DNA from: an uncultured Candidatus Saccharibacteria bacterium | GTDB taxonomy: Bacteria > Patescibacteriota > Doudnabacteria > UBA920 | Reading direction: 5' to 3' | DNA length: 64,000 bases | Assembly: GCA_964436545.1 (NCBI GenBank) | Contig: CAYTCJ010000003.1 | Coordinates: forward strand, 3,168 to 67,167 | Shown here: positions 960 to 61,373 of the stretch, one piece after another | How the letters are laid out: each line of letters starts with the position of its first letter | Numbering within the stretch: the first letter of the stretch is position 1 | Made by a program: the position numbers and the translations under genes | The notes under the pieces: generated by a model | What the model was told of the DNA's origin: nothing | Seen by the model: only the letters and a program-made list of their open reading frames with translations | Databases searched by the model: none

Positions 960-1281
960 TTTTTGTTCTTTCCAGTTTGGAATGGCTCGTCTCCCTACGG
1001 GAGACAGGCAAGTTTTGGTAGCAAAATTGTTCTGATATTGCAAGTAAAGCAATTTTATTATTGTCATGCTGAATTTATTTCAGCATCCAGTTGACATATA
1101 GATTCTGAAACCCACCAGAGGTTGGCAGGCAAGTTCAGAATGACAGAGGAAATTTATTTTCTTTATATTGCTATACAATGATAGGTGTTTTGCTCCCCAA
1201 GCTTGCCTTGCCTTGGTTCTATCCCATGGACTTTAAGGCAGGGTCATTCCTCCAAATCTCAAAAGGGGGAGTGAATAGAAA

Positions 1282-5652: not shown

Positions 5653-7023
5653 ATGAGGATAATTGCCGACCTCCAAATTCATAGTAAATATTCTCGTGCT
5701 TGTTCCCAAGACCTTAATCCACAAAATATTGGCTTGTGGGCGCAAAAAAAAGGTATTCAGGTTATTGGCACCGGGGATTTTACGCATCCCAAATGGCTTT
5801 TGGAGTTAAAGGAGAATTTGGTAGAAGCAAAACCGGGGTTGTATCGATTGCGATCTAATTCGGGTCATTCAAATACTATTCGTGGATTCGGGTCGGCTCA
5901 TTTTATGCTTACTGCGGAAGTTTCGAGTATTTACAAACAAGGCGACAAAGTAAGGCGGGTGCACAATATGATTCTGGCGCCGAACTTTCAGGCAGTTGAT
6001 AAAATTATTGCCGGCTTAGAAAAGCGAGGAGCTAATTTAAAAAGTGACGGCCGACCGATTATGGGCATTAAGTGTCCGGATTTGGTAAAGCTGGTTAAAG
6101 AGGCCTCCTTAGAAGCGGAAATTATTCCGGCGCATGCTTGGACTCCGCACTTTGGCGTGTTTGGTTCCTTGTCGGGTTTTAATAGCATAGAGGAAGCGTT
6201 TGGTGAGGAGGCAAAACACATTTTTGCCATTGAAACCGGCCTGTCAGCTGACCCAAAAATGAATTGGCAAATTTCATCGCTCGACCAGTATGCTTTGGTG
6301 TCTAACAGCGATGCGCATAGTTTAAGAAAACTGGGGCGGGAGGCCAATGTGTTTGAAATAGAGGAGAAAAAATTATCTTATGCGGAAATAATTCGCGTGA
6401 TTCGGAATAAAGATCCCAAAGAATTTCTTTACACTTTGGAATTTTTTCCCGAGGAAGGCAAATACCATTTAGATGGCCATGCCGATTGCAAATTTTCTTG
6501 TGAACCTTTGAAAACCCAAAAATTAAAAGGGGTTTGTCCGGTGTGTGGAAAAAAATTATTGGTGGGTGTGTTAAGTCGGGTAGAGGCTTTGGCCGATAGA
6601 GCCTATGGGTTTATGCCGAAACGGGCTGTGCCTTTTAAAAATGTAATTCCGTTAGAAGAAATTATTGCCGATGTGCTGGGTGTGGGGGTGGCATCTAAAC
6701 GAGTGGTGGAGATGTATGAGCGAATGGTGAACTCCTCCCGACCTCCTCTTTCGAAAAGAGGAGGGGTATTGCAGTCACCCCCTCTTTCTTTAAAGAGGGG
6801 GGAGGGGGAGTTGTGTGATGAGTTTTCCATTCTTCTCGATTTAACCGAAGCGCAAATTACCGCCATCTCGAATCCAGCCATAGCCCAAGCCATCATCCGC
6901 GTTCGCGAAGGTAAGGTTAAACTAGAAGGTGGGTATGATGGCGTGTTTGGTAAAATTGAAATTTTTAGCCAAGCAGAAAGGGAAAAATTGTTTTTAAAAC
7001 CTAAACAAGTAACTTTATTTTAA
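5653..7023 (+). CDS. PHP-domain nuclease, endonuclease Q-like (TIGR00375-like) with C4 zinc finger
   Basis: The N-terminal IADLQIHSKYS motif is PHP-type. CEPL...CPVCGKK forms a zinc ribbon. The overall length and layout resemble EndoQ. The gene carries an in-frame palindromic insert (6733-6812). Confidence 0.6.
   Translation: MRIIADLQIHSKYSRACSQDLNPQNIGLWAQKKGIQVIGTGDFTHPKWLLELKENLVEAKPGLYRLRSNSGHSNTIRGFGSAHFMLTAEVSSIYKQGDKVRRVHNMILAPNFQAVDKIIAGLEKRGANLKSDGRPIMGIKCPDLVKLVKEASLEAEIIPAHAWTPHFGVFGSLSGFNSIEEAFGEEAKHIFAIETGLSADPKMNWQISSLDQYALVSNSDAHSLRKLGREANVFEIEEKKLSYAEIIRVIRNKDPKEFLYTLEFFPEEGKYHLDGHADCKFSCEPLKTQKLKGVCPVCGKKLLVGVLSRVEALADRAYGFMPKRAVPFKNVIPLEEIIADVLGVGVASKRVVEMYERMVNSSRPPLSKRGGVLQSPPLSLKRGEGELCDEFSILLDLTEAQITAISNPAIAQAIIRVREGKVKLEGGYDGVFGKIEIFSQAEREKLFLKPKQVTLF
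6733..6812. repeat. Tandem pair of GC-rich hairpins inserted in frame in the EndoQ-like gene
   Basis: Two perfect hairpins, cctcctctttcgaaaagaggagg and cccctctttctttaaagagggg(ggaggggg). They encode SSRPPLSKRGGVLQSPPLSLKRGEGEL. Confidence 0.65.
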
Positions 7024-7779: not shown

Positions 7780-9057
7780 TTAGTTTATTAGTAATTCCTC
7801 AATCTTCATTAACCGGTTATATTTACACACCCGCTCGCCTCGGGTGGGGCCGACTTTAATCCACTCACTACCCATGGCCACGGCAAGGTCAACTAAGAAA
7901 GTGTCATTGGTTTCGCCCCCGCCTCGGTGGGAGGGAATAGTGATGAAATTATATTTTTTAGCTAAAAGGCAAGCCTCGACGGTTTCACTCACCGTGCCGG
8001 CTTGGTTAAGTTTAATTAAAATCGCATTGGCGCATTTTTCATCTATGGCTTTTTGCCAAAGTTTTGCATTAGTTACGGTTAAGTCATCGGCCACAATTTT
8101 TACTGTGCCCGCTTGGCTCATTAATTTTGGCCAATTGCTCCAGTCAAATTCCGAGAGACCGTCTTCCAAAGCTATAATCGGATATTTACGAAACCAATCC
8201 GCATACATAGCAATTATTTCGTCGGAAGTTAGCAGTTTTTTATCCACTTTTAAACTATATTTATTATCACTCAGGAATTCCGAAGCCGCAGCGTCTATGT
8301 AAATGCCCGCATCTGTGATAGCTTGATAGCCGGCTTGTTCTATGGCCTTAGTAAGAATTTGTAAAGGCAGTTCATTGCTGGTAATTCCGGCCGGCGCAAA
8401 AGCGCCTTCGTTGCCGACGTTGGTGTTAAACCCTTGTTGTTTTAAAAGGGTTTTGGTGGCTTGATAAATTTCTTCCATCATTTGCACGTTGGCCTTAGCA
8501 GATTGGTTTTTATTTACCGCTAAAATATACTCTTGTAAATCGGTAGAATTATCGGCATGTTTACCGCCTTCAATAAACACGGCAAGGGGACGAGGTAAGT
8601 TGTAAGTTGTAAGTTGCCTGTCTGCGGACAAGGCAGGTAAGTTGTAAGTATTAGCTAGATATTCATATAATTCCAAGTTTGCATCAGTGGCAGCAGCGCG
8701 GGCAATGGCCATGGAAACCCCCAAAATGGCATTGGCACCCAAATTACTTTTGTTTTCCGTGCCGTCTGCGTCAATCATAAGCCTATCAATTTCCTGTTGA
8801 GCTTTTGCCTCTTTGCCAATTAGTAGAGGTGCGATTTTTGTATTAACATTTGCCGTGGCCTGAAGCATACCTTTGCCGTTATAGCGTTTCACTTCACTAT
8901 CGAGCAAAACAAAAGCTTCTTTACTGCCTGCCGACTCGCCATAAGACACGCTGGCTGTGCCGACACAATTATTTTCTAAGACAACGTCCACCTCTAAAGA
9001 GGGCGCGCCACCGCTAGCTAAGATTTCTCTTGCAAAAATGTGTTTGATTTTGGTCAT
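7780..9057 (-). CDS. eno: Enolase (phosphopyruvate hydratase)
   Basis: The SHRGGGETNDTF(LV)DLAVA signature and the overall 425-aa alignment pattern match Eno. The gene contains an in-frame repeat insert (8595-8650). Confidence 0.9.
   Translation of the reverse strand: MTKIKHIFAREILASGGAPSLEVDVVLENNCVGTASVSYGESAGSKEAFVLLDSEVKRYNGKGMLQATANVNTKIAPLLIGKEAKAQQEIDRLMIDADGTENKSNLGANAILGVSMAIARAAATDANLELYEYLANTYNLPALSADRQLTTYNLPRPLAVFIEGGKHADNSTDLQEYILAVNKNQSAKANVQMMEEIYQATKTLLKQQGFNTNVGNEGAFAPAGITSNELPLQILTKAIEQAGYQAITDAGIYIDAAASEFLSDNKYSLKVDKKLLTSDEIIAMYADWFRKYPIIALEDGLSEFDWSNWPKLMSQAGTVKIVADDLTVTNAKLWQKAIDEKCANAILIKLNQAGTVSETVEACLLAKKYNFITIPSHRGGGETNDTFLVDLAVAMGSEWIKVGPTRGERVCKYNRLMKIEELLIN
8595..8650. 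repeat. Palindromic unit flanked by GTAAGTTGTAAGT repeats, inserted in frame in eno
   Basis: Plus strand reads gtaagttgtaagttgtaagttg-cctgtctgcggacaaggcagg-taagttgtaagt. On the coding strand it encodes TYNLPALSADRQLTTYNLP, which has a duplicated TYNLP flank. This sits where other enolases have a short loop before the GGxHADN motif. Confidence 0.65.
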
Positions 9058-11233: not shown

Positions 11234-11966
11234 ATGGGCATCTTCAAGGGGATTCCCCTTGAAGATGCCCATCGAGGGAATATGAATCATCGAGATTATA
11301 AACAATTTGCCCCTTTAACCTCCCATCATATTTATAATCGGGGAAATGGAAAGCGAGATATTTTTTTGGATGCGGATGATTATAATTTTTTTCTATATCG
11401 CCTGAAAGAAAATCTTTTTCCCACCTTGAAGATGCCCATCGAGGGGAGTGTATTTAATAATTCGCATACTCCATATAAACGCAAAACCTTGCCTAGCGGA
11501 GCATTTTCTTTATTGGCTTATTGTTTGATGCCAAATCATTTTCATTTACTAATCCAACAGAATTCGTTATTGCCTGTGAGTAAGTTATTAGCCAAAGTTT
11601 GTACAAGTTATAGTAAATATTTTAACAAAAAATATGATAATATTGGTGGAGTCTTTCAAGATCAATTTAAAGCAGTTTTAGTTGTTAGTGATACTCAACT
11701 GCTTTGGCTTTCAGCGTATATTCATCAAAACCCGGTAATAGCAGGAATTATAAAAAAGATAGAGGATTATCAATGGTCTAGTTATTTAGATTTGGTGGGT
11801 TTAAGGCAAGGGAGTCTTTGTGATAAAAGTTTTTTTGTGAAAATGGTTGGTTCTAAAAATTCTTATAAAAAATTTGTTGATGAAAGTTTTGAAAAAATTA
11901 AACAACGGAAGGACATTAAGAATTTACTAATAGAATAGTACCCCCCTTGAAGATGCCCATCAAGGG
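11234..11966 (+). mobile_element. RAYT (REP-associated tyrosine transposase) unit flanked by REP hairpins
   Basis: REP-like hairpins cccTTGAagatgcccatCgAggg occur as an inverted pair at 11234-11273, again at 11425-11447 (inside the gene) and again at 11941-11966. The enclosed CDS has HuH and Tyr motifs. Confidence 0.7.
11283..11938 (+). CDS. IS200/IS605-like Y1 HuH transposase (REP-associated tyrosine transposase)
   Basis: HFHLLI is the HuH motif, and YIHQNPV supplies the downstream catalytic Tyr. The track ORF start at 11234 is encoded by the REP palindrome, so the ATG at 11283 is the more likely start. Confidence 0.7.
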
Positions 11967-12143: not shown

Positions 12144-14609
12144 ATGGAAAAAGATAAGCAATTTGTTTTATGGTTTGACGAAATTAGCAAAGGCGACGTG
12201 GGTTTAGTGGGGGGAAAAAACGCCAATTTGGGAGAAATGTACCAAAATTTAACCAAAGCGGAAAGTCCGCTTTTTAAAGGCGAAAAGATTAATGTGCCTT
12301 ATGGGTTTTCTGTAACCGCTTATGCCTATCGGCAGTTTATTAGTGCGAATCAATTAGATCAAAAAATTAAAGAACTATTAAAAGATTTAGACACGCATAA
12401 CATTAAACAACTGGAAGAAAAAGGTCATAAAGTTAGACAAATTATTTTAGAAGCCAATTTTCCGGAAGACTTGTCTACCGCTATAAAAACCGCTTATGCG
12501 GAAATGGCTAAAAAATTAAAATTGCCCGCCGAAGAGTTAGATGTAGCGGTTAGGTCTTCTGCCACGGCCGAGGATTTACCGGATGCGAGTTTTGCCGGAC
12601 AACAAGAGAGTTATTTAAACATTAAGGGTGACCACGAGTTGTTGGAGAGTATTAAAAAAGCCTTTTCGTCGTTGTTTACCAACCGCGCAATTTCTTACCG
12701 GCAAGACAAAAATTATGACCACTTTAATGTTGCCTTGTCCGTAGCTGTGCAAAAAATGGCGAGGTCAGATCGCGGTTCTAGCGGAGTATTATTTACCATA
12801 GATACGGAGAGCGGGTTTAAAAATTGTTTAATTATTAACGGCGCTTGGGGTCTGGGTGAGTTTGTGGTTAAAGGGATTGTGAACCCCGATGAGTTTAAAG
12901 TGTTTAAACCTACCCTAAAACAGGGTTTTAAATCTATCATCAATAAAAAGTTAGGCAGTAAAGAGAAAAAGTTAATTTATGCTTCGGAAGGCACAGAGCC
13001 CACAAGGGAAGCGCCGGTAGCCGAAGCCGACCGGCACCGCTTTGTGCTCAACGATGAGCAAATTTTGCAATTGGCCAAGTGGGGAGTAATTATTGAAGAG
13101 CATTACCAAAGACCCATGGATATTGAATGGGCGTTGGACGAAACTACTAACCAGCTCTACATTGTGCAGGCCAGACCCGAGACCGTGCATGCGCACCGCG
13201 ATGCTAATTTTTTGGAAGAATTTGTTTTGGAAGAAAAAGGCAAGGTAATTACGCAAGGTGCTGCGGTGGGTGCTAAAATCGGACAAGGCAAGGCACACTA
13301 TATAAAAGATGCGGGCAAAATTTCGGAATTCCAAAAAGGTGAGGTGTTAGTGACGGAAATTACCGATCCCGACTGGGAACCGATTATGAAGATTGCTTCG
13401 GCGATTGTGACCAATTCCGGCGGGCGAACCTCGCACGCTGCCATTGTGTCGCGGGAGTTAGGGATTCCGGCTGTGGTGGGCACGGGGAATGCCACAACGA
13501 TAATTAAAGACGGGCAGGAAATTACCGTTTCTTGCGCTGAGGGTGAGTTAGGTAAAGTTTACGAAGGTTTGCTGAAATTTAAAATCAATAAAACCGACCT
13601 TACCGGCTTTACGCCTCCGAAGACCGATATTAAAATGATAGCGGCTGATCCGGAATTGGCTTTTGGCTATTCATTTTTGCCCAATAAAGGCGTTGGCTTG
13701 GCTCGTCAGGAATTTGTGATTTCCAATTCCATAAAAATTCATCCCAATGCGTTAATTAATTATGACACACTGGAAGACCAAGAAGTTAAAAAACAGATTG
13801 ATGTGCTAACCGTGGGGTATGAAGATAAAACTAAGTATTACGTGGAAAAGTTGGCATTTGGTTTGGGGCAGTTAGCCGCAGCCTTCTACCCTTACGATGT
13901 GCTGATGCGGTTTAGTGATTTTAAAAGCAATGAATACGCCAATTTAATTGGGGGAAAATTGTTTGAGCCTGTGGAAGAAAACCCCATGCTCGGGTGGCGA
14001 GGGGCGAGCCGGTATTATTCTCCGGCATACGAAAAAGCGTTCGCGTTTGAGGTGGAGGCGGTTAAGCGCGTAAGGGAAGAAATGGGTTTAATGAATTTAA
14101 GCGTAATGGTGCCGTTTTGTCGCATGCCGGAAGAAGGCAAAAAAGTGGTGGAGTTAATTAATCGCCACGGTTTAACCAATCGCATTTCTCCGGAAGCTCG
14201 CAAACAAAAAAAGAACGGTGATTTGGTGGCCGGTTTGGAAATTTGGGTGATGGCAGAAATCCCTTCTAATATTTTACAAGTTGAAGAATTTGCGGAAATT
14301 TTTGACGGCTTTTCTATTGGCAGTAATGATTTAACCCAGTTAACTTTGGGGTTAGACCGAGACAGTAAAGACATTGCCCATATTGGCAATGAACGCAGTC
14401 CGGCCGTCAGAAAATTAATTAGTATCTTAATTAAAGAAGCTCATGCGCGGGGCTTAAAGGTGGGAATTTGCGGACAAGGGCCGAGTGACTTTCCGGATTT
14501 TGGGGAATTTTTGGTGAAAGAGGGAATAGATAGCGTGTCTTTAAACCCGGACACGGTAATTAAAGCCACCTTAAAACTTAAAGCAGTGGAAGAAAAGATA
14601 GGAAAATAA
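12144..14609 (+). CDS. ppsA: Phosphoenolpyruvate synthase (pyruvate, water dikinase)
   Basis: 821 aa. The N-terminus VLWFDEISKGDVGLVGGKNANLGEM, the phospho-His region GGRTSHAAIVSRELGIPAVVG and a C-terminal PEP-utilising TIM barrel are all present. Confidence 0.85.
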   Translation: MEKDKQFVLWFDEISKGDVGLVGGKNANLGEMYQNLTKAESPLFKGEKINVPYGFSVTAYAYRQFISANQLDQKIKELLKDLDTHNIKQLEEKGHKVRQIILEANFPEDLSTAIKTAYAEMAKKLKLPAEELDVAVRSSATAEDLPDASFAGQQESYLNIKGDHELLESIKKAFSSLFTNRAISYRQDKNYDHFNVALSVAVQKMARSDRGSSGVLFTIDTESGFKNCLIINGAWGLGEFVVKGIVNPDEFKVFKPTLKQGFKSIINKKLGSKEKKLIYASEGTEPTREAPVAEADRHRFVLNDEQILQLAKWGVIIEEHYQRPMDIEWALDETTNQLYIVQARPETVHAHRDANFLEEFVLEEKGKVITQGAAVGAKIGQGKAHYIKDAGKISEFQKGEVLVTEITDPDWEPIMKIASAIVTNSGGRTSHAAIVSRELGIPAVVGTGNATTIIKDGQEITVSCAEGELGKVYEGLLKFKINKTDLTGFTPPKTDIKMIAADPELAFGYSFLPNKGVGLARQEFVISNSIKIHPNALINYDTLEDQEVKKQIDVLTVGYEDKTKYYVEKLAFGLGQLAAAFYPYDVLMRFSDFKSNEYANLIGGKLFEPVEENPMLGWRGASRYYSPAYEKAFAFEVEAVKRVREEMGLMNLSVMVPFCRMPEEGKKVVELINRHGLTNRISPEARKQKKNGDLVAGLEIWVMAEIPSNILQVEEFAEIFDGFSIGSNDLTQLTLGLDRDSKDIAHIGNERSPAVRKLISILIKEAHARGLKVGICGQGPSDFPDFGEFLVKEGIDSVSLNPDTVIKATLKLKAVEEKIGK

Positions 14610-14611
14610 AT

Positions 14612-14938
14612 ATGAAGCCAAAAAGACAGGGTGAAAAAATCGGCGGTGAGCATTCAACTTTTAATGACCTAGCCGTGGGGGTGGCTGATTTTTTGCAAAA
14701 ACTGCCTGAAGTTCACAAAATTTCTCCAGGCTATATTACTTCTGGTATTGGGGGCGGTGCGGGTAGGCGCCATGTAAAAATTATTGATGAAACAGGTTGT
14801 ATATTATTAACTTGTAAACAATCAAGTTCAGTTCAGGAAGTTAGAGTATTTACTAAAAATCCTCAGTCGGTAAAATTGGCTTTAGCTCGGTGGTTAAGGG
14901 ATAGTAAGATAGAGATTAGTTTTGACAGCCATACATAA
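14612..14938 (+). CDS. Hypothetical small protein
   Basis: 108 aa. The start overlaps the ppsA stop region. No motif recognised. Confidence 0.4.
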   Translation: MKPKRQGEKIGGEHSTFNDLAVGVADFLQKLPEVHKISPGYITSGIGGGAGRRHVKIIDETGCILLTCKQSSSVQEVRVFTKNPQSVKLALARWLRDSKIEISFDSHT

Positions 14939-27379: not shown

Positions 27380-27500
27380 AAGCTGATTATAACATACTAA
27401 TTTACTAAAGAATCCGGAATGTTGACGTTAGGTATACTTTACTGGGGTATAAGCTTGATTTTTGTTTTATTTATGTTAAAATATCCAAAGGTATTCGGGA

Positions 27501-27565
27501 GTTCCGCCAGCTGGCGGATCAGCGGTACCTGCCTCTACCTGTCGGCAGACAGGTGCCGGCAGGCA
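27501..27565. repeat. Cluster of GC-rich palindromic units (ccgccagctggcgg; cctgtcggcagacagg; gccggcaggcagg)
   Basis: Perfect short palindromes lie in an otherwise AT-rich intergenic region. The same units recur at 61356-61373, 55731-55750, 45491-45512 and 8617-8635. Confidence 0.65.
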
Positions 27566-27595
27566 GGGAGCAATCGGCTTCAGAATAAAGAAAAT

Positions 27596-27874
27596 ATGTA
27601 TTGTGTTTATGCAATCATTAGCCAAATAAAAAATAGAATTTATGTAGGACTGTCCCACGATCCCTTTAAAAGGCTTACCGAACATAATTTAGGAGAATGT
27701 AAATCCACTAAAGGTTATACACCTTGGAAATTGTTTTTTATCGAAACTGACCATCAATCTTTAAATTCTGCAAGAAATAGTGAAAAGAGATTGAAGAGCG
27801 GTTTTGGTAAAGAATTTTTAAAAACTTTACCGAAAGAAAAAATTTCATATTATTCGGGAGTAGCTCAGCGGTAG
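27596..27874 (+). CDS. GIY-YIG nuclease family protein (small, standalone)
   Basis: MYCVYAII...RIYVGLSHDPFKRLTEHN matches the GIY-YIG core. The 3' end overlaps the tRNA-Asn 5' end, and the track start at 27419 lies in repeat DNA. Confidence 0.6.
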   Translation: MYCVYAIISQIKNRIYVGLSHDPFKRLTEHNLGECKSTKGYTPWKLFFIETDHQSLNSARNSEKRLKSGFGKEFLKTLPKEKISYYSGVAQR

Positions 27875-27928
27875 AGCAATCGGCTGTTAACCGATGGGTC
27901 CTGGGTTCGAATCCCAGCTCCCGAGCCA
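27854..27928 (+). tRNA. tRNA-Asn (anticodon GUU)
   Basis: Acceptor stem tcgggag/ctcccga, D-arm gctcagcggtagagc, anticodon loop ct-GTT-aa, T-arm ctgggttcgaatcccag, discriminator G and an encoded CCA. Confidence 0.85.
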
Positions 27929-27967
27929 CGCTAAGCGTGGCTGTACCCCCGCTTAGCGGGGGAGCCA
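27914..27967. repeat. 54-bp direct repeat copy 1 (tRNA-Asn 3' end + two downstream hairpins); attL-like
   Basis: ccagctcccgagccacgctaagcgtggctgtacccccgcttagcgggggagcca is identical over 54/54 nt to 32357-32410. Confidence 0.8.
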
Positions 27968-32173: not shown

Positions 32174-32356
32174 CCATATAAGCCTTTCTAATACGCTGCA
32201 CATATCGGAGCCATAAGAAATTCATTCCATTTTGGGATGGATTTTTTATTTCTAGATACTGGTATGAGAAGTTTATCCGCCTCTGGCGGAAATCCCGCCT
32301 ACAATAATTTGAATTGCTTTAGCAATTCATAGTGGAAGTGCCATAAAACTTTATGG

Positions 32357-32410
32357 CCAGCTCCCGAGCCACGCTAAGCGTGGCTGTACCCCCGCTTAGC
32401 GGGGGAGCCA
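32357..32410. repeat. 54-bp direct repeat copy 2 (partial tRNA-Asn 3' end + hairpins); attR-like
   Basis: Identical to 27914-27967, but no full tRNA precedes it. It is preceded by the palindrome gccataaaactttatggc. Confidence 0.8.
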
Positions 32411-38183: not shown

Positions 38184-39149
38184 TTATTTGTTTGAGACTT
38201 CGGCAGGGGGAGTTTGGGAGTTTTGGTAAGACAGGGCGGTAATGGCACCTAGCAGAATCAGCCCGCCTACAATTTGCATTATCGCCAGTTGACCCCCTGG
38301 AATAAATATCCAATTAATAATTACTGCAGAAAAGGGGAAAGCTAATTCGCACAAAGTGGCAATGCTCGCTTTGGTATGCTGTAAGCCTTTGTAGTAAATA
38401 AATAAAGAAACAAAGCCCGCAATTGTGGCAATAATTAAAACAAATAGCCAATCTTTAGTGGTGGCGTGAGCAATTTCGCCCCAATGGCCTTGGTATGTTT
38501 GGAAGGCCAATAAAAATCCGCCTGCGGTTAAAAACCGAATAGCAGTTAAGGCCTGAAAAGAGAGTTGATTTAAAAGTTTTCTGCCAAACACAGTCGAGCC
38601 TGCCCACAGCCCGGCTGCCAGTAAAGCTAATAAGACGCCTTTGAGGTTAGGGTTAAAGCTTTCGCCCGGGTAAAGTTGAGGTGTAAAGTTAGGGAAACTT
38701 AGCAAATACGCGCCCAAGATCGCAAAGCCAGACCAGAGCCAAAATTTGGCTGAAAGTTGTTCTTTTAAAAAGATAACGGCTAACAGAATGGCAATAATGG
38801 GCTGAATTTTTTGGAGGAGAATGGCTACCGAAGGGTTAACATAGTGAAAGCTTTGGGTAAAGGCTATGGTAGCCAGTGCACTGCCTCCTATACCAATAAA
38901 GACAACATACCCCCACTCTAGGCGGGTTAAAGTTTTTAGTTCGGACAGGTATTTATTTAAAAACCATAACACTAAAACCGCAATCACCAAATGCTCCATA
39001 AGCACAATAGTGCCGGAAGATAGATCGCCGGTTAAATATTTTCTAAAGGGCGCATCTATAGTCCAAAGCAGAGCAGAGAAAAAAACTAACCAAGGCGCAA
39101 AACGAGATGAAAGCATAGGGGAAATAGAGTTATGAATTATGTCCCGCAA
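38184..39149 (-). CDS. DMT-superfamily transporter (EamA-like, 10 TM)
   Basis: Two EamA-like halves with about 10 hydrophobic helices. Confidence 0.7.
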   Translation of the reverse strand: MRDIIHNSISPMLSSRFAPWLVFFSALLWTIDAPFRKYLTGDLSSGTIVLMEHLVIAVLVLWFLNKYLSELKTLTRLEWGYVVFIGIGGSALATIAFTQSFHYVNPSVAILLQKIQPIIAILLAVIFLKEQLSAKFWLWSGFAILGAYLLSFPNFTPQLYPGESFNPNLKGVLLALLAAGLWAGSTVFGRKLLNQLSFQALTAIRFLTAGGFLLAFQTYQGHWGEIAHATTKDWLFVLIIATIAGFVSLFIYYKGLQHTKASIATLCELAFPFSAVIINWIFIPGGQLAIMQIVGGLILLGAITALSYQNSQTPPAEVSNK

Positions 39150-39180
39150 AGCGGGATCCGCCTTTGGCGGAAATTATGAA
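39141..39180. repeat. Palindromic element: gtcccgcaaagcgggat + ccgcctttggcgg + aaattatgaa
   Basis: Two perfect hairpins. A longer version with an extra middle unit lies at 55711-55770. Confidence 0.7.
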
Positions 39181-43471: not shown

Positions 43472-43790
43472 AGAGAAGAGGGGCAGGTTGGTAAGTTGTA
43501 AGTAAGTTGTAAGAAGAGATATTAGAGAAGCAGGGTAAGTTGCCTGCCGGCAGGTAAGTAAAGTATACCAGCTCATTGAGACTCAGTAAACAAGCGAGAG
43601 AAGATAAGTTAAATTGCGATGCTAATATGCGAATACATGCTAATAATGCGAATAAATCCATATAGCCATTGGCTAATAGGCAGGTAAGGAGAGAGGGATA
43701 GAGATTAGAGAAGAGGGATTAGAGATTAGAGAAGAGAGAAGTAGGGAGTAGATAGGGAAAAAGAAAAAAGTAAAAAAATTAACAAGGTGC
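43472..43790. repeat. Low-complexity/short tandem repeat region containing a gtaagttg-cctgccggcagg-taagt unit
   Basis: It holds GTAAGTTGTAAGT, AGAGATTAGAGAAG and GAGAAGAG repeats. The 43533-43557 unit is of the same kind as the eno in-frame insert. Confidence 0.6.
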
Positions 43791-45254: not shown

Positions 45255-47081
45255 ATGCTTAATGATAATTTATCAGCATTACATTCTCTAATGGGGTTTG
45301 AGGGGGAAGTAGACAACAGTGAAGATACTTTAATCAAATACAGTCATGATGCCAGCATTTTTGAAGTGAGGCCCATGGGTGTGGTGCATCCGAAAAATAG
45401 TGAAGATGTAAAGAATGTGGTGAAGTGGGTGGTAAGCCAAAGGCAAGATAGTTTAACTTTGAATACAGATGACTCAGAGCGTCATCCTGAACCTGCCTTG
45501 TCGTCAGGCAGGCTTGTTTCAGGATCCCATATAAATGGATTCCGAAATAAATTCGGAATGACAAATGGAGATAAAGCTTCTGTAAATAAAGGGGGGGAGT
45601 TATCTATTACAGCTCGGAGTGCCGGCACAGATATGTCGGGCGGGCCACTTAATACTGGAATAATTGCCGACTTTACCACGCATTTTAATAAAATTTTAAA
45701 CTTTGGGCCGAATTTTGTAGAAGTAGAGCCGGGGGTATATTACCGCGACTTTGAAGTAGAAACTTTAAAACGCGGACTACTTTTGCCATGTTATACGGCT
45801 TCCAAAATGCTGAATACCGTGGGCGGAATGGTGGGCAACAATAGCGCGGGTGAAAAAACTTTGGCGTATGGGCAAACTAAAGATTTTGTAGAAGAATTAA
45901 GCGTGGTATTGAGTGATGGAAATGAATATCAATTTAGTGAATTGGAAAGTAGAGAATTAGAGAGTAAACTAAAACTCCCGAATTTTGAAGGTGATATTTA
46001 CCGAAAAATCTATCAGCTCATTAAAGATAATCGCGATTTAATTCAAAACGCCAAACCCAAAACCAGTAAAAATTCCGCCGGATATTTACTGTGGGAAGTA
46101 TGGGATGGTATAAAATTTAATTTAGCCAAATTAATTGTAGGCAGTCAGGGGACATTGGGCCTTGTTACGAAAATTCGGTTTCGGCTGGTAGAGCCTAAGC
46201 CTAAGTCTGCTTTGCTGGTGATGTTTTTAAAAGACTTGAATAATTTGGGAGAAATTGTGGCAGATGTGGTAGAACATAAGCCGGAAAGTTTTGAAAGTTA
46301 TGATGATAAAACTTTAAAACTGGCCATAAAGTTTTTGCCCGCCATGGTAAAGAAGATGTCCAAAACCGCTGGGTCGGCTTTTGGTGGCATTCTAAACATG
46401 TTAAGTTTGGGTTGGCAGTTTATGCCCGAAGCGGTTATGACTTTAACTGGCGGAATGCCTAAGCTGGTATTAATTTGTGAGTTTACCGGCACGAGCCAAG
46501 AAGCAGTAAATGAAAAAGCCAGTTTACTCCAGCGGGAAGTGGAAGGGAAATTTCATATCCAAACTCGGATTTGTCAAAATAAACAAGAAGTGGAAAAATA
46601 TTGGACCATAAGGCGGGAGTCGTTTTCTCTTTTACGGGAGCGCATTAAAGACCGGCACACCGCCCCCTTCATAGATGACATTGCGGTCCTGCCCAAAGAT
46701 ATGCCAGCATTTTTACCGCGGTTAAATAAAATTTTGGAAAAATATCAGGACAAAATTATTTACACCATTGCCGGACATGCGGGGAATGGCAATTTTCACA
46801 TCATTCCCTTAATGAATTTGGCGGACGAAAACCAGCGCGCGATAATTCCTCAACTTTCCGAAGAAGTTTATAGTTTGGTTTTGGAATTTCATGGGACAAT
46901 TACGGCAGAGCATAACGACGGACTGATTCGCACCCCTTTTTTACAAAAAATGTATGGGAAAGAGGTAATAGGTTTGTTTGAAGCAGTAAAAAATATTTTT
47001 GATCCGCACAATATTTTTAACCCCGGCAAAAAAGTTCACGGGGATTTGGGGTATGCGATGGAGCATATTAAAAGAAGTTAG
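45255..47081 (+). CDS. FAD-linked oxidase (GlcD / D-lactate dehydrogenase-like, PCMH-type FAD-binding)
   Basis: ARSAGTDMSGGPLN and an N-terminal FAD-binding-4 pattern. The C-terminal domain ends NIFNPGK. Carries an in-frame ~80-nt palindromic insert (see 45480-45562). Confidence 0.75.
   Translation: MLNDNLSALHSLMGFEGEVDNSEDTLIKYSHDASIFEVRPMGVVHPKNSEDVKNVVKWVVSQRQDSLTLNTDDSERHPEPALSSGRLVSGSHINGFRNKFGMTNGDKASVNKGGELSITARSAGTDMSGGPLNTGIIADFTTHFNKILNFGPNFVEVEPGVYYRDFEVETLKRGLLLPCYTASKMLNTVGGMVGNNSAGEKTLAYGQTKDFVEELSVVLSDGNEYQFSELESRELESKLKLPNFEGDIYRKIYQLIKDNRDLIQNAKPKTSKNSAGYLLWEVWDGIKFNLAKLIVGSQGTLGLVTKIRFRLVEPKPKSALLVMFLKDLNNLGEIVADVVEHKPESFESYDDKTLKLAIKFLPAMVKKMSKTAGSAFGGILNMLSLGWQFMPEAVMTLTGGMPKLVLICEFTGTSQEAVNEKASLLQREVEGKFHIQTRICQNKQEVEKYWTIRRESFSLLRERIKDRHTAPFIDDIAVLPKDMPAFLPRLNKILEKYQDKIIYTIAGHAGNGNFHIIPLMNLADENQRAIIPQLSEEVYSLVLEFHGTITAEHNDGLIRTPFLQKMYGKEVIGLFEAVKNIFDPHNIFNPGKKVHGDLGYAMEHIKRS
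45480..45562. repeat. Compound palindromic element inserted in frame in the FAD-oxidase gene
   Basis: atcctgaa-cctgccttgtcgtcaggcagg-cttgtttcaggat followed by attccgaaataaattcggaat-gaca. It encodes ERHPEPALSSGRLVSGSHINGFRNKFGMTNG between the conserved FAD-binding segments. Confidence 0.65.
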
Positions 47082-47121
47082 CAATCAGTAGTCAGTAAAT
47101 CAGTAATCAGTAGACAGCGAA

Positions 47122-47613
47122 TTAGTAGTTAGAAAATAAATGAAATTGCCGGACCGAGCGCCCCGTGGGGGGCGAAGGTCCGGCTTTGCGTTGCGCGCTG
47201 TCTTTTTTTGCCGGAGGGCGCGCCACCTCCAGCAAAACCGATTTGAACTCTTCTACTGCCTTTTGGGCAGCCGGGACACGTGCCCCTTCCAAAATGAGCT
47301 CAAGCTGATAAACAGCACGAGCTCCGTCCGGCCGGAGTTCAATCCGGAATCGTCGTTTTTTAACTTCCACGACATGGACGGTTATGCTCAGAGCCTTGCC
47401 CGATTCAACATCGGGATTTGACTTGAGCCATGGAACCAAGGTTTCCGACACCGCGCCGTAAAGGACGCGGTAGTCCTCGCCGGCTTCGTCCGGCGGAACT
47501 TTAGGCAGGAGTTCAACCTGCCGGTCGGTCGCCCCCTCAAGAGAGGGTATAAAATAGCAAGAAATAAAAAAAAGACCCACCCTCAATAATATCACCAAAA
47601 ATTTCCTCATCAT
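47122..47613 (-). CDS. Secreted hypothetical protein, high-GC body with AT-rich signal-peptide region
   Basis: 163 aa. The signal peptide is encoded at low GC and the body at about 60% GC. Low-complexity AATCAG/CAGTAG repeats flank it (47085-47135, 47950-48035). Confidence 0.45.
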   Translation of the reverse strand: MMRKFLVILLRVGLFFISCYFIPSLEGATDRQVELLPKVPPDEAGEDYRVLYGAVSETLVPWLKSNPDVESGKALSITVHVVEVKKRRFRIELRPDGARAVYQLELILEGARVPAAQKAVEEFKSVLLEVARPPAKKDSAQRKAGPSPPTGRSVRQFHLFSNY

Positions 47614-48042
47614 TCTCTCCTTTTAGGAAGTTCGCGTCCGTTTTGCCTCTGTGGCCAAGAACGCTTAAAAGAGAGTATAAAAGAAAAATTAAAAAATGAC
47701 AAAAAATAAAAAAATCGCGCTTTGGACAATTACCAAAGGCGATTTGGACTAATTAAAATTAGTCCTCCTATTTTATCCGGCTCCCTCAGGCGAAGGAAAT
47801 GCTAAAACCCACCCTTGGGAGCCGGAACCCTGTTCAGCAAAAGTAGAACAGGGCCACAATTAATTGATAGTATAAAGCTGGTTTGCGATTAAAGCAAGGC
47901 GCTGGTTTTTTATTGGCAGATAGTGGTATAATTGTTAGGTTATTGATTGTAGGTGATAAGTCGGTCAGCAGACAGAAATTAGCTAATCAGCTGACAGCTA
48001 ATCAGCAGTCAGCTGATCAGCAAGTAAGTTGAAGAAAATTAT

Positions 48043-55008: not shown

Positions 55009-55033
55009 CGGGCAAGAAGTAAGTAGTAAGTTT

Positions 55034-55699
55034 ATGAATAAAGAAGTTAGCGTCAAATTTAATAAGTCAATTGTTAAAGGTCAATGGTTAAGTGTTAACC
55101 GAGGTTTTACTTTGGTAGAACTGATTGTCGCTTTGTTTGGGTTTGTTATTTTAGTGTTCGGGGTGGTGGCTTTGGTGAGTAATGTGTTTTTTGCTTCCAC
55201 AAAGCAAGCCAATTTATTAGCCGACTCCGATTCAGCCAGAAGTTTAAGTAATAAAATTATTAATGAATTACGAAATGCCAGTTTATCGGCAGTGGGGGCT
55301 TATCCGTTAGATACCGCCGGAGCGCAAAGTTTAATTTTTTACAGCAATGTAGATACCGATGCGGATATGGAACGAGTTCGGTATTTTGTGCAGAACGGTA
55401 AGCTCCTTAAAGGTATAATTAACCCTAGCGGAAATCCTTTAAGTTATAATTCCGCAAACGAAAGAATTCTCACTGTGCAGGATAATTTAGCCAATGGCAA
55501 TAGCCCGCTGTTTTATTATTACAACGGTGCCTATACGGGTAAAGAAGCCCCTTTAGCCCAGCCGTTAAATGTAACAGAAGTTAAAACCGTAAAAATGGAT
55601 TTACGAATTTTAAATAAAGCCGGAGTCACGAACACTAACTATTATTCTGTGGTAACCAGCGGAGTGATGCGAAGTTTAAAAACGAATTTAGGAGAGTGA
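55034..55699 (+). CDS. Type IV minor pilin / pseudopilin
   Basis: NRGFTLVELIVALFGFVIL prepilin motif. 221 aa. Confidence 0.7.
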   Translation: MNKEVSVKFNKSIVKGQWLSVNRGFTLVELIVALFGFVILVFGVVALVSNVFFASTKQANLLADSDSARSLSNKIINELRNASLSAVGAYPLDTAGAQSLIFYSNVDTDADMERVRYFVQNGKLLKGIINPSGNPLSYNSANERILTVQDNLANGNSPLFYYYNGAYTGKEAPLAQPLNVTEVKTVKMDLRILNKAGVTNTNYYSVVTSGVMRSLKTNLGE

Positions 55700-55710: not shown

Positions 55711-55770
55711 GTCCCGCAAAGCGGGATCCCTGCCTTGTCGGCAGACAGGCGCCTTTGGCGGAAATTATGA
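55711..55770. repeat. Three-unit palindromic element: gtcccgcaaagcgggat + cctgccttgtcggcagacagg + gcctttggcggaaattatgaa
   Basis: A longer form of the 39141-39180 element. Its middle unit equals the eno and FAD-oxidase insert cores. AGAGAATAG tandem repeats follow it. Confidence 0.7.
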
Positions 55771-55800
55771 ATAGAGAATAGAGAATAGAGAATAAAGCAA

Positions 55801-61355: not shown

Positions 61356-61373
61356 ATCCGCCAGCTGGCGGAT
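61356..61373. repeat. Palindromic unit atccgccagctggcggat
   Basis: Identical to the unit at 27503-27520. Confidence 0.7.

Follow-up and report, generated by a model that had tools for sequence, protein, structure and literature searches.

Rickettsia palindromic elements (RPEs), dispersed palindromes that lie in frame in housekeeping genes, were reportedly described by Ogata et al. in 2000 and 2002 and by Claverie and Ogata in 2003. RPE-1 is about 100–150 nt long and encodes 45–50 amino acids (aa). SDR4-6, small dispersed repeats (SDRs) of Nostocaceae described by Elhai et al. in 2008, are said to be 21–27 nt long, mobile as judged from filled and empty orthologous sites, nested, and devoid of a transposase of their own. 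IS608 inserts 3′ of TTAC, and AT-rich organelle genomes carry mobile GC clusters, for example in yeast mitochondrial var1, whose units measure 30–50 nt and whose mechanism is not established. Here we analyse a 64-kb stretch of contig CAYTCJ010000003.1 (the window, with positions counted from its first letter), in which a 21-nt palindromic element, hereafter the 21-mer, interrupts the enolase gene in frame, and we compare it with these systems.

RPE-4 and RPE-6, which are short RPEs, are CGTC-type repetitive extragenic palindromes (REPs) (PMC3733652), and intragenic GTAG/CGTC REPs are known in Rickettsia conorii, Opitutus terrae and others (Di Nocera et al. 2013, PMC3733652). REP insertions have been reported within genes of REP-associated tyrosine transposases (RAYTs), and the general mechanism of single-strand transposition by IS200/IS605 elements has been described (PMC6006769). 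According to PMC5861425, SDRs are reported only in Nostocaceae.

The enolase locus contains the following features:
7780–9057, minus strand: enolase gene, host of the insert, an open reading frame (ORF) of 425 aa.
8617–8637, minus strand: inserted palindromic element CCTGCCTTGTCCGCAGACAGG, 21 nt, encoding PALSADR (residues 141–147), missing base for base in three related loci (L002, L004, L005).
8638–8649, minus strand: heptanucleotide array upstream of the insert, ACTTACAACTTA, unbroken in the empty-site genes L002 and L004.
8594–8616, minus strand: heptanucleotide array downstream of the insert, CAACTTACAACTTACAACTTACC.

On the minus strand, positions 8594–8649 inside the enolase ORF read ACTTACAACTTA-CCTGCCTTGTCCGCAGACAGG-CAACTTACAACTTACAACTTACC, preceded by aat and followed by tcgt. 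The nearest relative, P0007 (locus L002), with 93–95% aa identity to the window enolase, has the empty site AAT GCT TAC AAC TTA C/AA CTT ACA ACT TAC AAC TTG CCT (slash, insertion point), and the filled site of the window is AAT ACT TAC AAC TTA C/CTGCCTTGTCCGCAGACAGGC/AA CTT ACA ACT TAC AAC TTA CCT. The enolases P0001 (L005, 88%) and P0003 (L004, 82%) are likewise empty. With the insert removed, the window enolase aligns without gaps to L002 (978 nt) and L005 (1257 nt), the 21 nt being its sole indel against either. The junction has a one-base ambiguity (C), and comparison with the empty sites in L002, L004 and L005 reveals no target-site duplication; the insertion and its exact limits are thus demonstrated at the level of single bases. 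In addition, an identical filled allele is independently assembled in a Logan contig (L001). We conclude that 8617–8637 is probably a recent, seamless insertion of one copy of a small dispersed palindromic element of mobile, REP-like identity, a joint reading to which we assign a probability of about 0.8.

The initial annotation had proposed an in-frame insertion of a dispersed palindromic repeat in the enolase loop before the GGxHADN motif, and the empty orthologs bear this out: close orthologs lack the segment, and its core recurs at other sites in the window and in other genomes. Two details require correction. The insert measures 21 nt, or 7 aa, rather than about 19 aa, and the TYNLP segment, taken for a target or carrier duplication, belongs to an older (CTTACAA)n array already present in the empty-site loci L002, L004 and L005. 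The array, which was the target of the insertion, codes for the stretch that links enolase's N-terminal domain to its barrel, and the window has no other array of the CTTAC type. The repeat unit varies with the lineage: it is (CTTACAA)4 in L002, (CCTACAA)4 in L004, (CTTACCG)n in L128 and (CTTACAG)n in L003. As an observation in its own right, the unit is uniform inside one gene and varies between lineages, which resembles concerted simple-repeat turnover in a conserved enzyme.

The segment LELYEYL...IEGG could be measured in 99 of the 120 best enolase homologs. It is 31 residues long in 81 of these 99 (82%) and 38 residues long only in the window enolase and in P0012, so that parsimony favours a gain in the window lineage. 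In P0012 (L003, 70% identity, from a different subclade) the position of the window insert, after AAC TTA C, is occupied to the nucleotide by another 21-nt unit, CTGCCTCGCCGGCAGGCAGGC (PASPAGR), and the site is empty in P0063 (L128), a relative of P0012.

The host gene is intact and under purifying selection. The ORF matches the Pfam domains Enolase_N and Enolase_C, its best matches in the PDB are enolases (E = 1e-99), and its closest named relatives are from Patescibacteria, for example Doudnabacteria and Shapirobacteria; the G+C content of the window is 41%. The catalytic and metal-binding residues H167, E217, D255, E298, D324/D325, K349, H377 and K401 are invariant in alignment A1, and the ratio of nonsynonymous to synonymous substitution rates is 0.12 against the empty allele in L002 and 0.20 against that in L005. 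Around the insert the translation is ...LANTYNLPALSADRQLTTYNLPRP... (also given as ...LYEYLANTYNLPALSADRQLTTYNLPRPLAVFIEGGKHADN...). In an AlphaFold model with a mean predicted local distance difference test (pLDDT) score of 86, residues 138–150 form a coil between helix 130–137 and strand 156–163; residues 141–147 score near or under 50, and residues 144–146 score below 50. The best solved enolase structure has an alignment gap across the segment. PALSADR is best read, on this model, as a tolerated flexible loop that is probably surface-exposed, and the enolase with its insert would seem to remain functional. Other enolases of Patescibacteria (P0013, P0103, P0109 and P0057) contain different short inserts that look repeat-derived, including PSTGLGTSG in another loop and PSTGSGQV in the loop of the window insert; P0057 has a 19-aa insert in that same loop.

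The consensus of the 21-mer is CCTGCCTTGTCGGCAGACAGG. It folds into a short 5′ tail followed by GCCT(T)GTC-GGCA-GAC-AGGC, a hairpin with a 4-nt loop and a 7-bp stem from which one T bulges out, closed with the help of the C that comes after the unit; the GGCAGG variant has a perfect 7-bp stem. The unit starts with CCTG and ends with CAGG, and the GTAG/CGTC tag (or TGTC/CCTC) and the CCA tail are absent. Its consensus has no stop codon in any of the six frames; two frames, PALSADR and LSADKA(G), are free of Cys, and the remaining four contain it. Because the element is 21 nt long and stop-free in all six frames, it adds seven residues to the enzyme and does not truncate it. An origin from the tRNA-Asp anticodon arm or from 16S rRNA, to which the 21-mer has a partial similarity, was considered and set aside.

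The 22-mer CCTGCCTTGTCNGCAGACAGGC occurs three times in the window, at 8616–8637 (minus, 0 mismatches), 55729–55750 (plus, 0 mismatches) and 45492–45513 (plus, 2 mismatches), against an expectation of 0 in 100 dinucleotide shuffles; the enolase copy is one base apart from the other copies (CCGCAG versus CGGCAG). The initial annotation had noticed the same unit in an intergenic position near 55.7 kb and in frame in a flavin adenine dinucleotide (FAD) oxidase gene, and both copies are confirmed, at 55729–55749, where the start had been placed at 55731, and at 45492–45512. The features of these loci, and of the related repeats, are:
45492–45512, plus strand: second copy, CCTGCCTTGTCGTCAGGCAGG, encoding PALSSGR, in frame in the FAD oxidase gene 45255–47081.
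45480–45529, plus strand: CGTC-type REP hosting the second copy, CGTC-ATCCTGAA-[21-mer]-CTTGT-TTCAGGAT-CCCA.
45536–45563, minus strand: second CGTC-type REP, in opposite orientation, TGTC-ATTCCGAA-TTTAT-TTCGGAAT-CCA.
1061–1092, plus strand: third CGTC-type REP, intergenic, TGTC-ATGCTGAA-TTTAT-TTCAGCAT-CCA.
55729–55749, plus strand: third copy, consensus form CCTGCCTTGTCGGCAGACAGG, intergenic, 30 nt past the stop codon of gene 55034–55699.
55711–55785, plus strand: three-hairpin composite with the third copy, consisting of TCCCGCAAAGCGGGA, the 21-mer and CGCCTTTGGCGGA-AATTATGAA.
39142–39180, plus strand: paralogous empty site, the composite without the 21-mer, TCCCGCAAAGCGGGATC/CGCCTTTGGCGGAAATTATGAA.

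Every copy examined has an empty-site counterpart. A 95%-identical ortholog of the FAD oxidase, P0121, lacks exactly PALSSGR, and the DNA alignment of the window with the related locus L124 contains one 21-nt gap at this position, gagcgtcatcctgaa[CCTGCCTTGTCGTCAGGCAGG]cttgtttcaggatcc. For the intergenic copy, positions 55712–55770 read TCCCGCAAAGCGGGATC[CCTGCCTTGTCGGCAGACAGG]CGCCTTTGGCGGAAATTATGAA, of which 39142–39180 is the empty form; L124 has the filled composite twice, at 13863–13937 and 14648–14720, upstream and downstream of the orthologous pilin-like gene. A fourth pair comes from Maribacter (L092), where inverted repeats around a RAYT gene read GCTAGCGCGAG/CGTCACGCTCGTGCC and the left repeat holds the 21-mer exactly at the slash. 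In all four pairs (enolase; 55729 versus 39142; FAD oxidase versus L124; Maribacter L092) the difference is 21 nt, followed by C, and none of these four polarised sites has a target duplication.

The two REPs at 45480–45563 are paired in frame within the FAD oxidase, where they make up a segment of about 45 aa without counterpart in more distant homologs, and the REP with the nested 21-mer folds far more stably than shuffled sequences (z = −5.2). Both match the published definition (Di Nocera et al. 2013, PMC3733652), which asks for a tag, a stem of 8 bp, a loop of 5 nt and a tail, and CGTC-type REPs so defined occur in this Patescibacteria-like genome. Apart from two tRNAs, Rfam recognises nothing in the window, the 21-mer elements included. 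Beside these repeats, the window (43600–43760 and 55010–55032) and L124 (1405–2440 and 13837–13923) contain intergenic AT-rich heptamer arrays of the AGAGAAG/ATTAGAG and GTAAGTA types and hairpin composites. When the window is compared with L124, most indels of over 20 nt trace to these arrays and composites; among them are an 87-nt block with the three-hairpin composite and one indel of 797 nt. Furthermore, the GC-rich, hairpin-dense region 47100–48040 hardly aligns with L124, a close relative, between flanks of 85–90% identity; neither Pfam for its ORF 47122–47613 (minus strand) nor Rfam for the region as a whole gave a match.

We scanned public genomes (one genome per species, 596 Gb) with the query CCTGCCTTGTCNNCAGRCAGG; the matches listed, to which the following counts refer, are a sample of taxa. 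The 21-mer is found in at least 118 genome stretches with at least 124 copies, where by our own estimate about 2–25 would be expected by chance, varying with base composition, and it is thereby placed in a dispersed family. The copies have unrelated flanks, 90 of 142 match the consensus exactly, and several genomes carry the 21-mer on two or more contigs. Apart from about ten matches named below, the taxa are Bacteroidota, Ignavibacteriota, Chlorobiota, Patescibacteria, Omnitrophota, Neomarinimicrobiota and Bdellovibrionales, with cultured Bacteroidota represented by Arenibacter, Maribacter, Eudoraea, Algoriphagus, Croceitalea and Autumnicola, and Patescibacteria by matches labelled Paceibacterota, Saccharibacteria, Giovannonibacteria and Gottesmanbacteria. 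About ten matches come from GC-rich taxa (Binatia, Dehalococcoidia, Nitrosomonas, Paracoccaceae, Tectomicrobia and the uncultured bacterium of L069) and may be chance or ordinary coding sequence. No cyanobacterial copy is among the 118 stretches. We found neither the exact 21-mer nor several of the adjoining module sequences in any paper in a literature search, nor a report of such an element in Patescibacteria.

Immediately 5′ of the unit, G is found in 74% of copies; immediately 3′, C is found in 43% and A in only 2%. Many copies lie in hairpin modules, namely CGTC REPs, TCCCCGC...GCGGGA, GTCACCCTGAG...GAAGGGTGA and GTCATTGCGAG...CAATCT. We rejected the idea that the 21-mer is always inserted in hairpin loops: a strict perfect-stem test gave 12% versus 6%, a two-fold difference, and the enolase target is not a hairpin. 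Non-coding copies lie in 37 tandem, 11 convergent and 9 divergent intervals, at a median distance of 120 nt to the stop codon. Their orientation relative to the upstream gene is unbiased (26 versus 22), which led us to reject a function at the RNA level and favours an element that acts at the level of DNA. Carriage by phages is likewise unsupported, as 2.9 million viral contigs contain no copy.

Tolerance of the 21-mer in coding DNA extends well beyond enolase, and 54 of the 124 copies (about 44%) lie in open frames of at least 150 codons. The two Cys-free frames are over-represented, being used by 30 of 50 coding copies against one third expected (p = 1e-4, L069 collapsed to one copy). In the LigA of a Saccharibacterium (L114) the linker ahead of the BRCT domain reads ...QPYNL-PALSADR-QLTTYKLAGKTFVITG, and further copies interrupt HisF-like, GltX-like and recombinase genes. 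A GT4-like glycosyltransferase gene (L130, from the same assembly as L004) contains aaaaacttacaactta[21]caacttacaacttacccc in another frame (CLVGRQA). Four copies share one phase, ACTTA/CA, in CTTAC arrays of three different genes. In a GC-rich uncultured bacterium (L069, 4061–5425), five copies with irregular spacing lie in one open frame of 1364 codons, each inside a repeated protein segment and read as GLSADKAG; a CRISPR array was rejected for these copies, given their uneven spacing and single reading frame. Similarly, His-/Met-rich repeat proteins of Chitinophagales (L012, L089, L103, L120) carry the variant CCTGCCTTGTCGTCAGACAGG, read as MPALSSDRDM, in some proteins more than once, and the unit seems to be co-duplicated with the protein repeat.

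These properties place the 21-mer beside, rather than within, the described systems. It resembles RPEs as a dispersed palindrome that lies in frame in housekeeping genes and gives rise to a peptide at tolerated, probably surface, sites, with the host gene remaining functional and with intergenic copies too; the parallel to RPE behaviour drawn in the initial annotation is supported, since the unit lies in frame in enolase as well as in the FAD oxidase. By length it is nevertheless not an RPE (21 nt and 7 aa versus about 100–150 nt for RPE-1); moreover, it lacks the CGTC tag of RPE-4 and RPE-6, its sequence is presumably unrelated, and its hosts, among whose phyla it is shared, are Patescibacteria and others, not Rickettsia. 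Like REPs, it falls in the range of 20–40 nt imperfect palindromes, is multicopy, lies mostly downstream of genes and sometimes within them, and clusters with other REPs. As for RAYTs, a RAYT-like gene occurs in the window and near three other copies, but each RAYT here is flanked by another palindrome, and the family as a whole shows no enrichment of RAYTs nearby. It differs from REPs in lacking the GTAG/CGTC tag and the CCA tail and in being one exact 21-mer across phyla where REP families have a degenerate consensus. REPINs (REP doublets forming hairpins) are inverted dimers, whereas the 21-mer occurs mostly as single units and all four filled/empty pairs differ by one unit. Miniature inverted-repeat transposable elements exceed about 50 nt, and the 21-mer, at 21 nt, has neither target duplication nor terminal repeats. 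Like SDRs, it falls in the size range of 21–27 nt, can be present or absent at orthologous loci, nests in other repeats and has no transposase of its own; its sequence is presumably different, and it is not confined to Nostocaceae, the only group in which PMC5861425 reports SDRs.

The likeness to IS200/IS605 elements lies in seamless, duplication-free insertion, in four copies 3′ of TTAC, and in a recognition unit that is a subterminal imperfect hairpin of 20–25 nt with an unpaired base; the differences are that the 21-mer has no internal transposase, a single hairpin and no fixed target tetranucleotide (ATCC, GAAC and GAGC are found elsewhere). The GC clusters of var1 are likewise GC-rich palindromes spreading in an AT-rich compact genome, with optional in-frame insertions in a protein gene, but they belong to eukaryotic organelles, have longer units (30–50 nt) and are unrelated in sequence. 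What appears to be new is the host lineage, the lower-limit size with exact codon-length behaviour, the repeated hits at one enolase site and the letter-perfect 21-mer across phyla.

Taken on its sequence features, the 21-mer is best read as behaving like a REP-type non-autonomous mobile sequence, because it is multicopy, nested in other REPs and hairpins, matched by empty-site counterparts and dispersed over several phyla. A candidate for the mobilising function lies 2.6 kb from the enolase insert:
11234–11938, plus strand: gene for a RAYT-like transposase of the Y1 (HUH) type, with 11282 as alternative ATG.
11234–11272: ATGGGCATCTTCAAGGGG att CCCCTTGAAGATGCCCAT, a perfect inverted repeat of 18 bp located at the RAYT gene's 5′ end.

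The product matches Pfam Y1_Tnp (E = 1.6e-9; 38.4 bits versus a cut-off of 23) and contains the motifs NHFH and YIHQNP. Among NCBIfam models the REP-associated tyrosine transposase fits best, with 54 bits, under the cut-off of 80. The RAYT palindrome, CCCCTTGAAGATGCCCATCGAGGG, has further copies inside the gene and in frame (11421–11446) and past its stop codon (11941–11966), and the interval 11234–11966 has the look of a REPtron, a RAYT-like gene flanked and interrupted by its own palindromes. In 3 of the 118 loci (L027, L032 and L092) RAYT genes adjoin or contain the 21-mer, which in L027 lies inside the RAYT gene. The tetranucleotide 5′ of the unit is TTAC, the target of IS608, in four copies and ATCC, GAAC or GAGC in others.

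We tentatively propose, at somewhat less than even odds, that a Y1 HUH enzyme of the RAYT/IS200 type, for which the gene 2.6 kb away is a candidate, mobilises the 21-mer in trans. The enzyme would excise the hairpin, or copy it, in single-stranded form and paste it elsewhere, and selection would then retain only copies in loops and benign reading frames. This mechanism is supported by the REP-like tail and bulged hairpin, by the RAYT-like gene in the window with its own palindromes, by the RAYTs beside the 21-mer in three loci and by the four copies 3′ of TTAC.

Several observations weigh against this picture of a REP-type element moved by a RAYT-like enzyme. The palindromes that directly flank each RAYT (window, L032, L092) are not the 21-mer, and the linkage may merely reflect the 21-mer landing in hairpins. 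When the 1405 ORFs around the 118 copies are clustered, no mobile-element family is strongly enriched; only common Bacteroidota families appear, together with RAYT in three loci. The 5′ flanks of the polarised events vary (TTA, ATC, GAA, GAG), unlike the fixed target tetranucleotide of IS200/IS605, whose transposons also have two ends where the 21-mer has a single hairpin, and this hairpin is moderately stable (DNA free energy about −5 kcal/mol, z −1.5 to −3.3). The taxonomic picture is that of a sample. Finally, the frame statistics overstate independence, as some coding copies are orthologous or paralogous.

More speculatively, and on balance doubtfully, the 21-mer might be a one-hairpin, seven-codon 'nano-element' of an undescribed class, the smallest mobile DNA known, serving as the recognition hairpin of a widespread single-strand DNA enzyme and for that reason constant across bacteria of the Fibrobacteres–Chlorobi–Bacteroidetes (FCB) group, Patescibacteria, Omnitrophota and others. 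If so, it would be a general source of new protein loops in streamlined genomes. The enolase site itself was hit in two lineages independently, and outside enolase the genes struck include LigA, HisF-like, GltX-like and RAYT genes.

The alternative that survives best is that the 21-mer spreads by homology, through recombination or gene conversion between copies of its host repeats (the CTTAC heptamer array, the CGTC REP and the two-hairpin unit) and not by transposition; the enolase array would have been converted by an array–hairpin–array donor elsewhere in the genome. Every polarised event indeed sits in sequence that is itself repeated, the combination ACTTACAACTTA[21]CAACTTACAACTTACC recurs near-verbatim and in the same array phase in the glycosyltransferase of L130, a related genome, and in the Saccharibacterium LigA (L114), the three-hairpin composite moves blockwise in L124, and exact 21-nt differences without target duplication are what conversion would produce. 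We nevertheless hold it to be unlikely, if still a serious contender. It leaves unexplained the first insertion into each kind of host repeat, the majority of copies, which have unique, non-repeated flanks, and the letter-perfect identity across phyla. Moreover, the window has no second CTTAC donor array within its 64 kb, and the enolase copy is one base off the other copies (CCGCAG versus CGGCAG).

A second possibility is copy-choice at stalled replication, in which the polymerase, held up at a hairpin or repeat, would switch to a folded 21-mer hairpin at another place, copy it from foot to foot and return via a 1-nt microhomology. Such a process needs no element-encoded function, and it would fit the frequent position of copies at stem–loop boundaries of other hairpins and the 1-nt junction ambiguity (C) common to all four polarised events. 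Set against this, perfect stems flank the copies only about twice as often as they flank controls, the site hit in enolase is no hairpin, and one preferred donor sequence in many phyla is hard to account for; we regard copy-choice as distinctly improbable.

Still less credible is a loss instead of a gain, with the segment present ancestrally in this enolase and removed by precise deletion in the relatives. Hairpins are deletion-prone, HUH-type elements excise precisely, and in P0012 (L003), a distant enolase, this site is filled by a related 21-nt unit. For a loss, P0007, P0001/P0002 and P0003 would nevertheless have had to delete it exactly and independently, in three or more events, the segment is missing in all 99 measurable homologs except P0012, P0012 has its own empty-site relative in P0063, and the FAD oxidase and intergenic copies repeat the filled/empty pattern against close relatives.

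An assembly chimera, adapter-like contamination or a chance resemblance of a native loop can practically be set aside: one short sequence that recurs unchanged in many phyla between unrelated flanks could have the look of contamination, and the 21-mer presumably shares GTCGGCAG with a Nextera adapter, but the filled allele was assembled independently (Logan contig L001), the gene, which is under purifying selection, keeps its frame exactly across the insert, cultured isolates (Arenibacter, Maribacter, Eudoraea, Algoriphagus) have copies too, and copies lie within long contigs, being contig-internal and nested in other repeats, variants exist (for example the GGCAGG form and the L003 form), and the chance expectation in the window is 0.

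A REP-like insertion, as we read this locus, means that a 21-nt palindrome moves into essential genes of a bacterium of the candidate phyla radiation and is kept there as seven extra residues, with filled and empty sites that are exact to the base. It offers a concrete origin for the odd extra loops that are frequent in proteins of these lineages, and a warning for annotation and alignment, in which PALSADR, LSADKAG and PSTGSGQ should be recognised as repeat-derived peptides. The 21-mer, with its polarised insertions, RAYTs nearby and cultivable Maribacter, Arenibacter and Algoriphagus hosts, is a possible tractable test system for the spread of REP-like sequences.

Other repeats of the window merit mention. 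Within the gene 5653–7023, two GC-rich hairpins at 6742–6801, CCTCCTCTTTCGAAAAGAGGAGG and CCCCCTCTTTCTTTAAAGAGGGGG, are translated in frame as PPLSKRGG...PPLSLKRGEG, and the orthologs in L002 and L004 have different sequences at this spot. An exact 54-nt direct repeat occurs at 27914–27967 and 32357–32410; it starts in the 3′ end of tRNA-Asn (27854–27928) and contains two hairpins. The 4.4 kb between its copies encode NUDIX, MOSC and amidase_2 proteins, and no integrase was found in the segment so bounded. The hairpin TCCGCCAGCTGGCGGA occurs twice, at 27503–27518 and 61357–61372, once in the N-terminal part of a GIY-YIG nuclease ORF (27419–27874), and related hairpins of the form TCCGCC...GGCGGA lie at 32276 and 39157.

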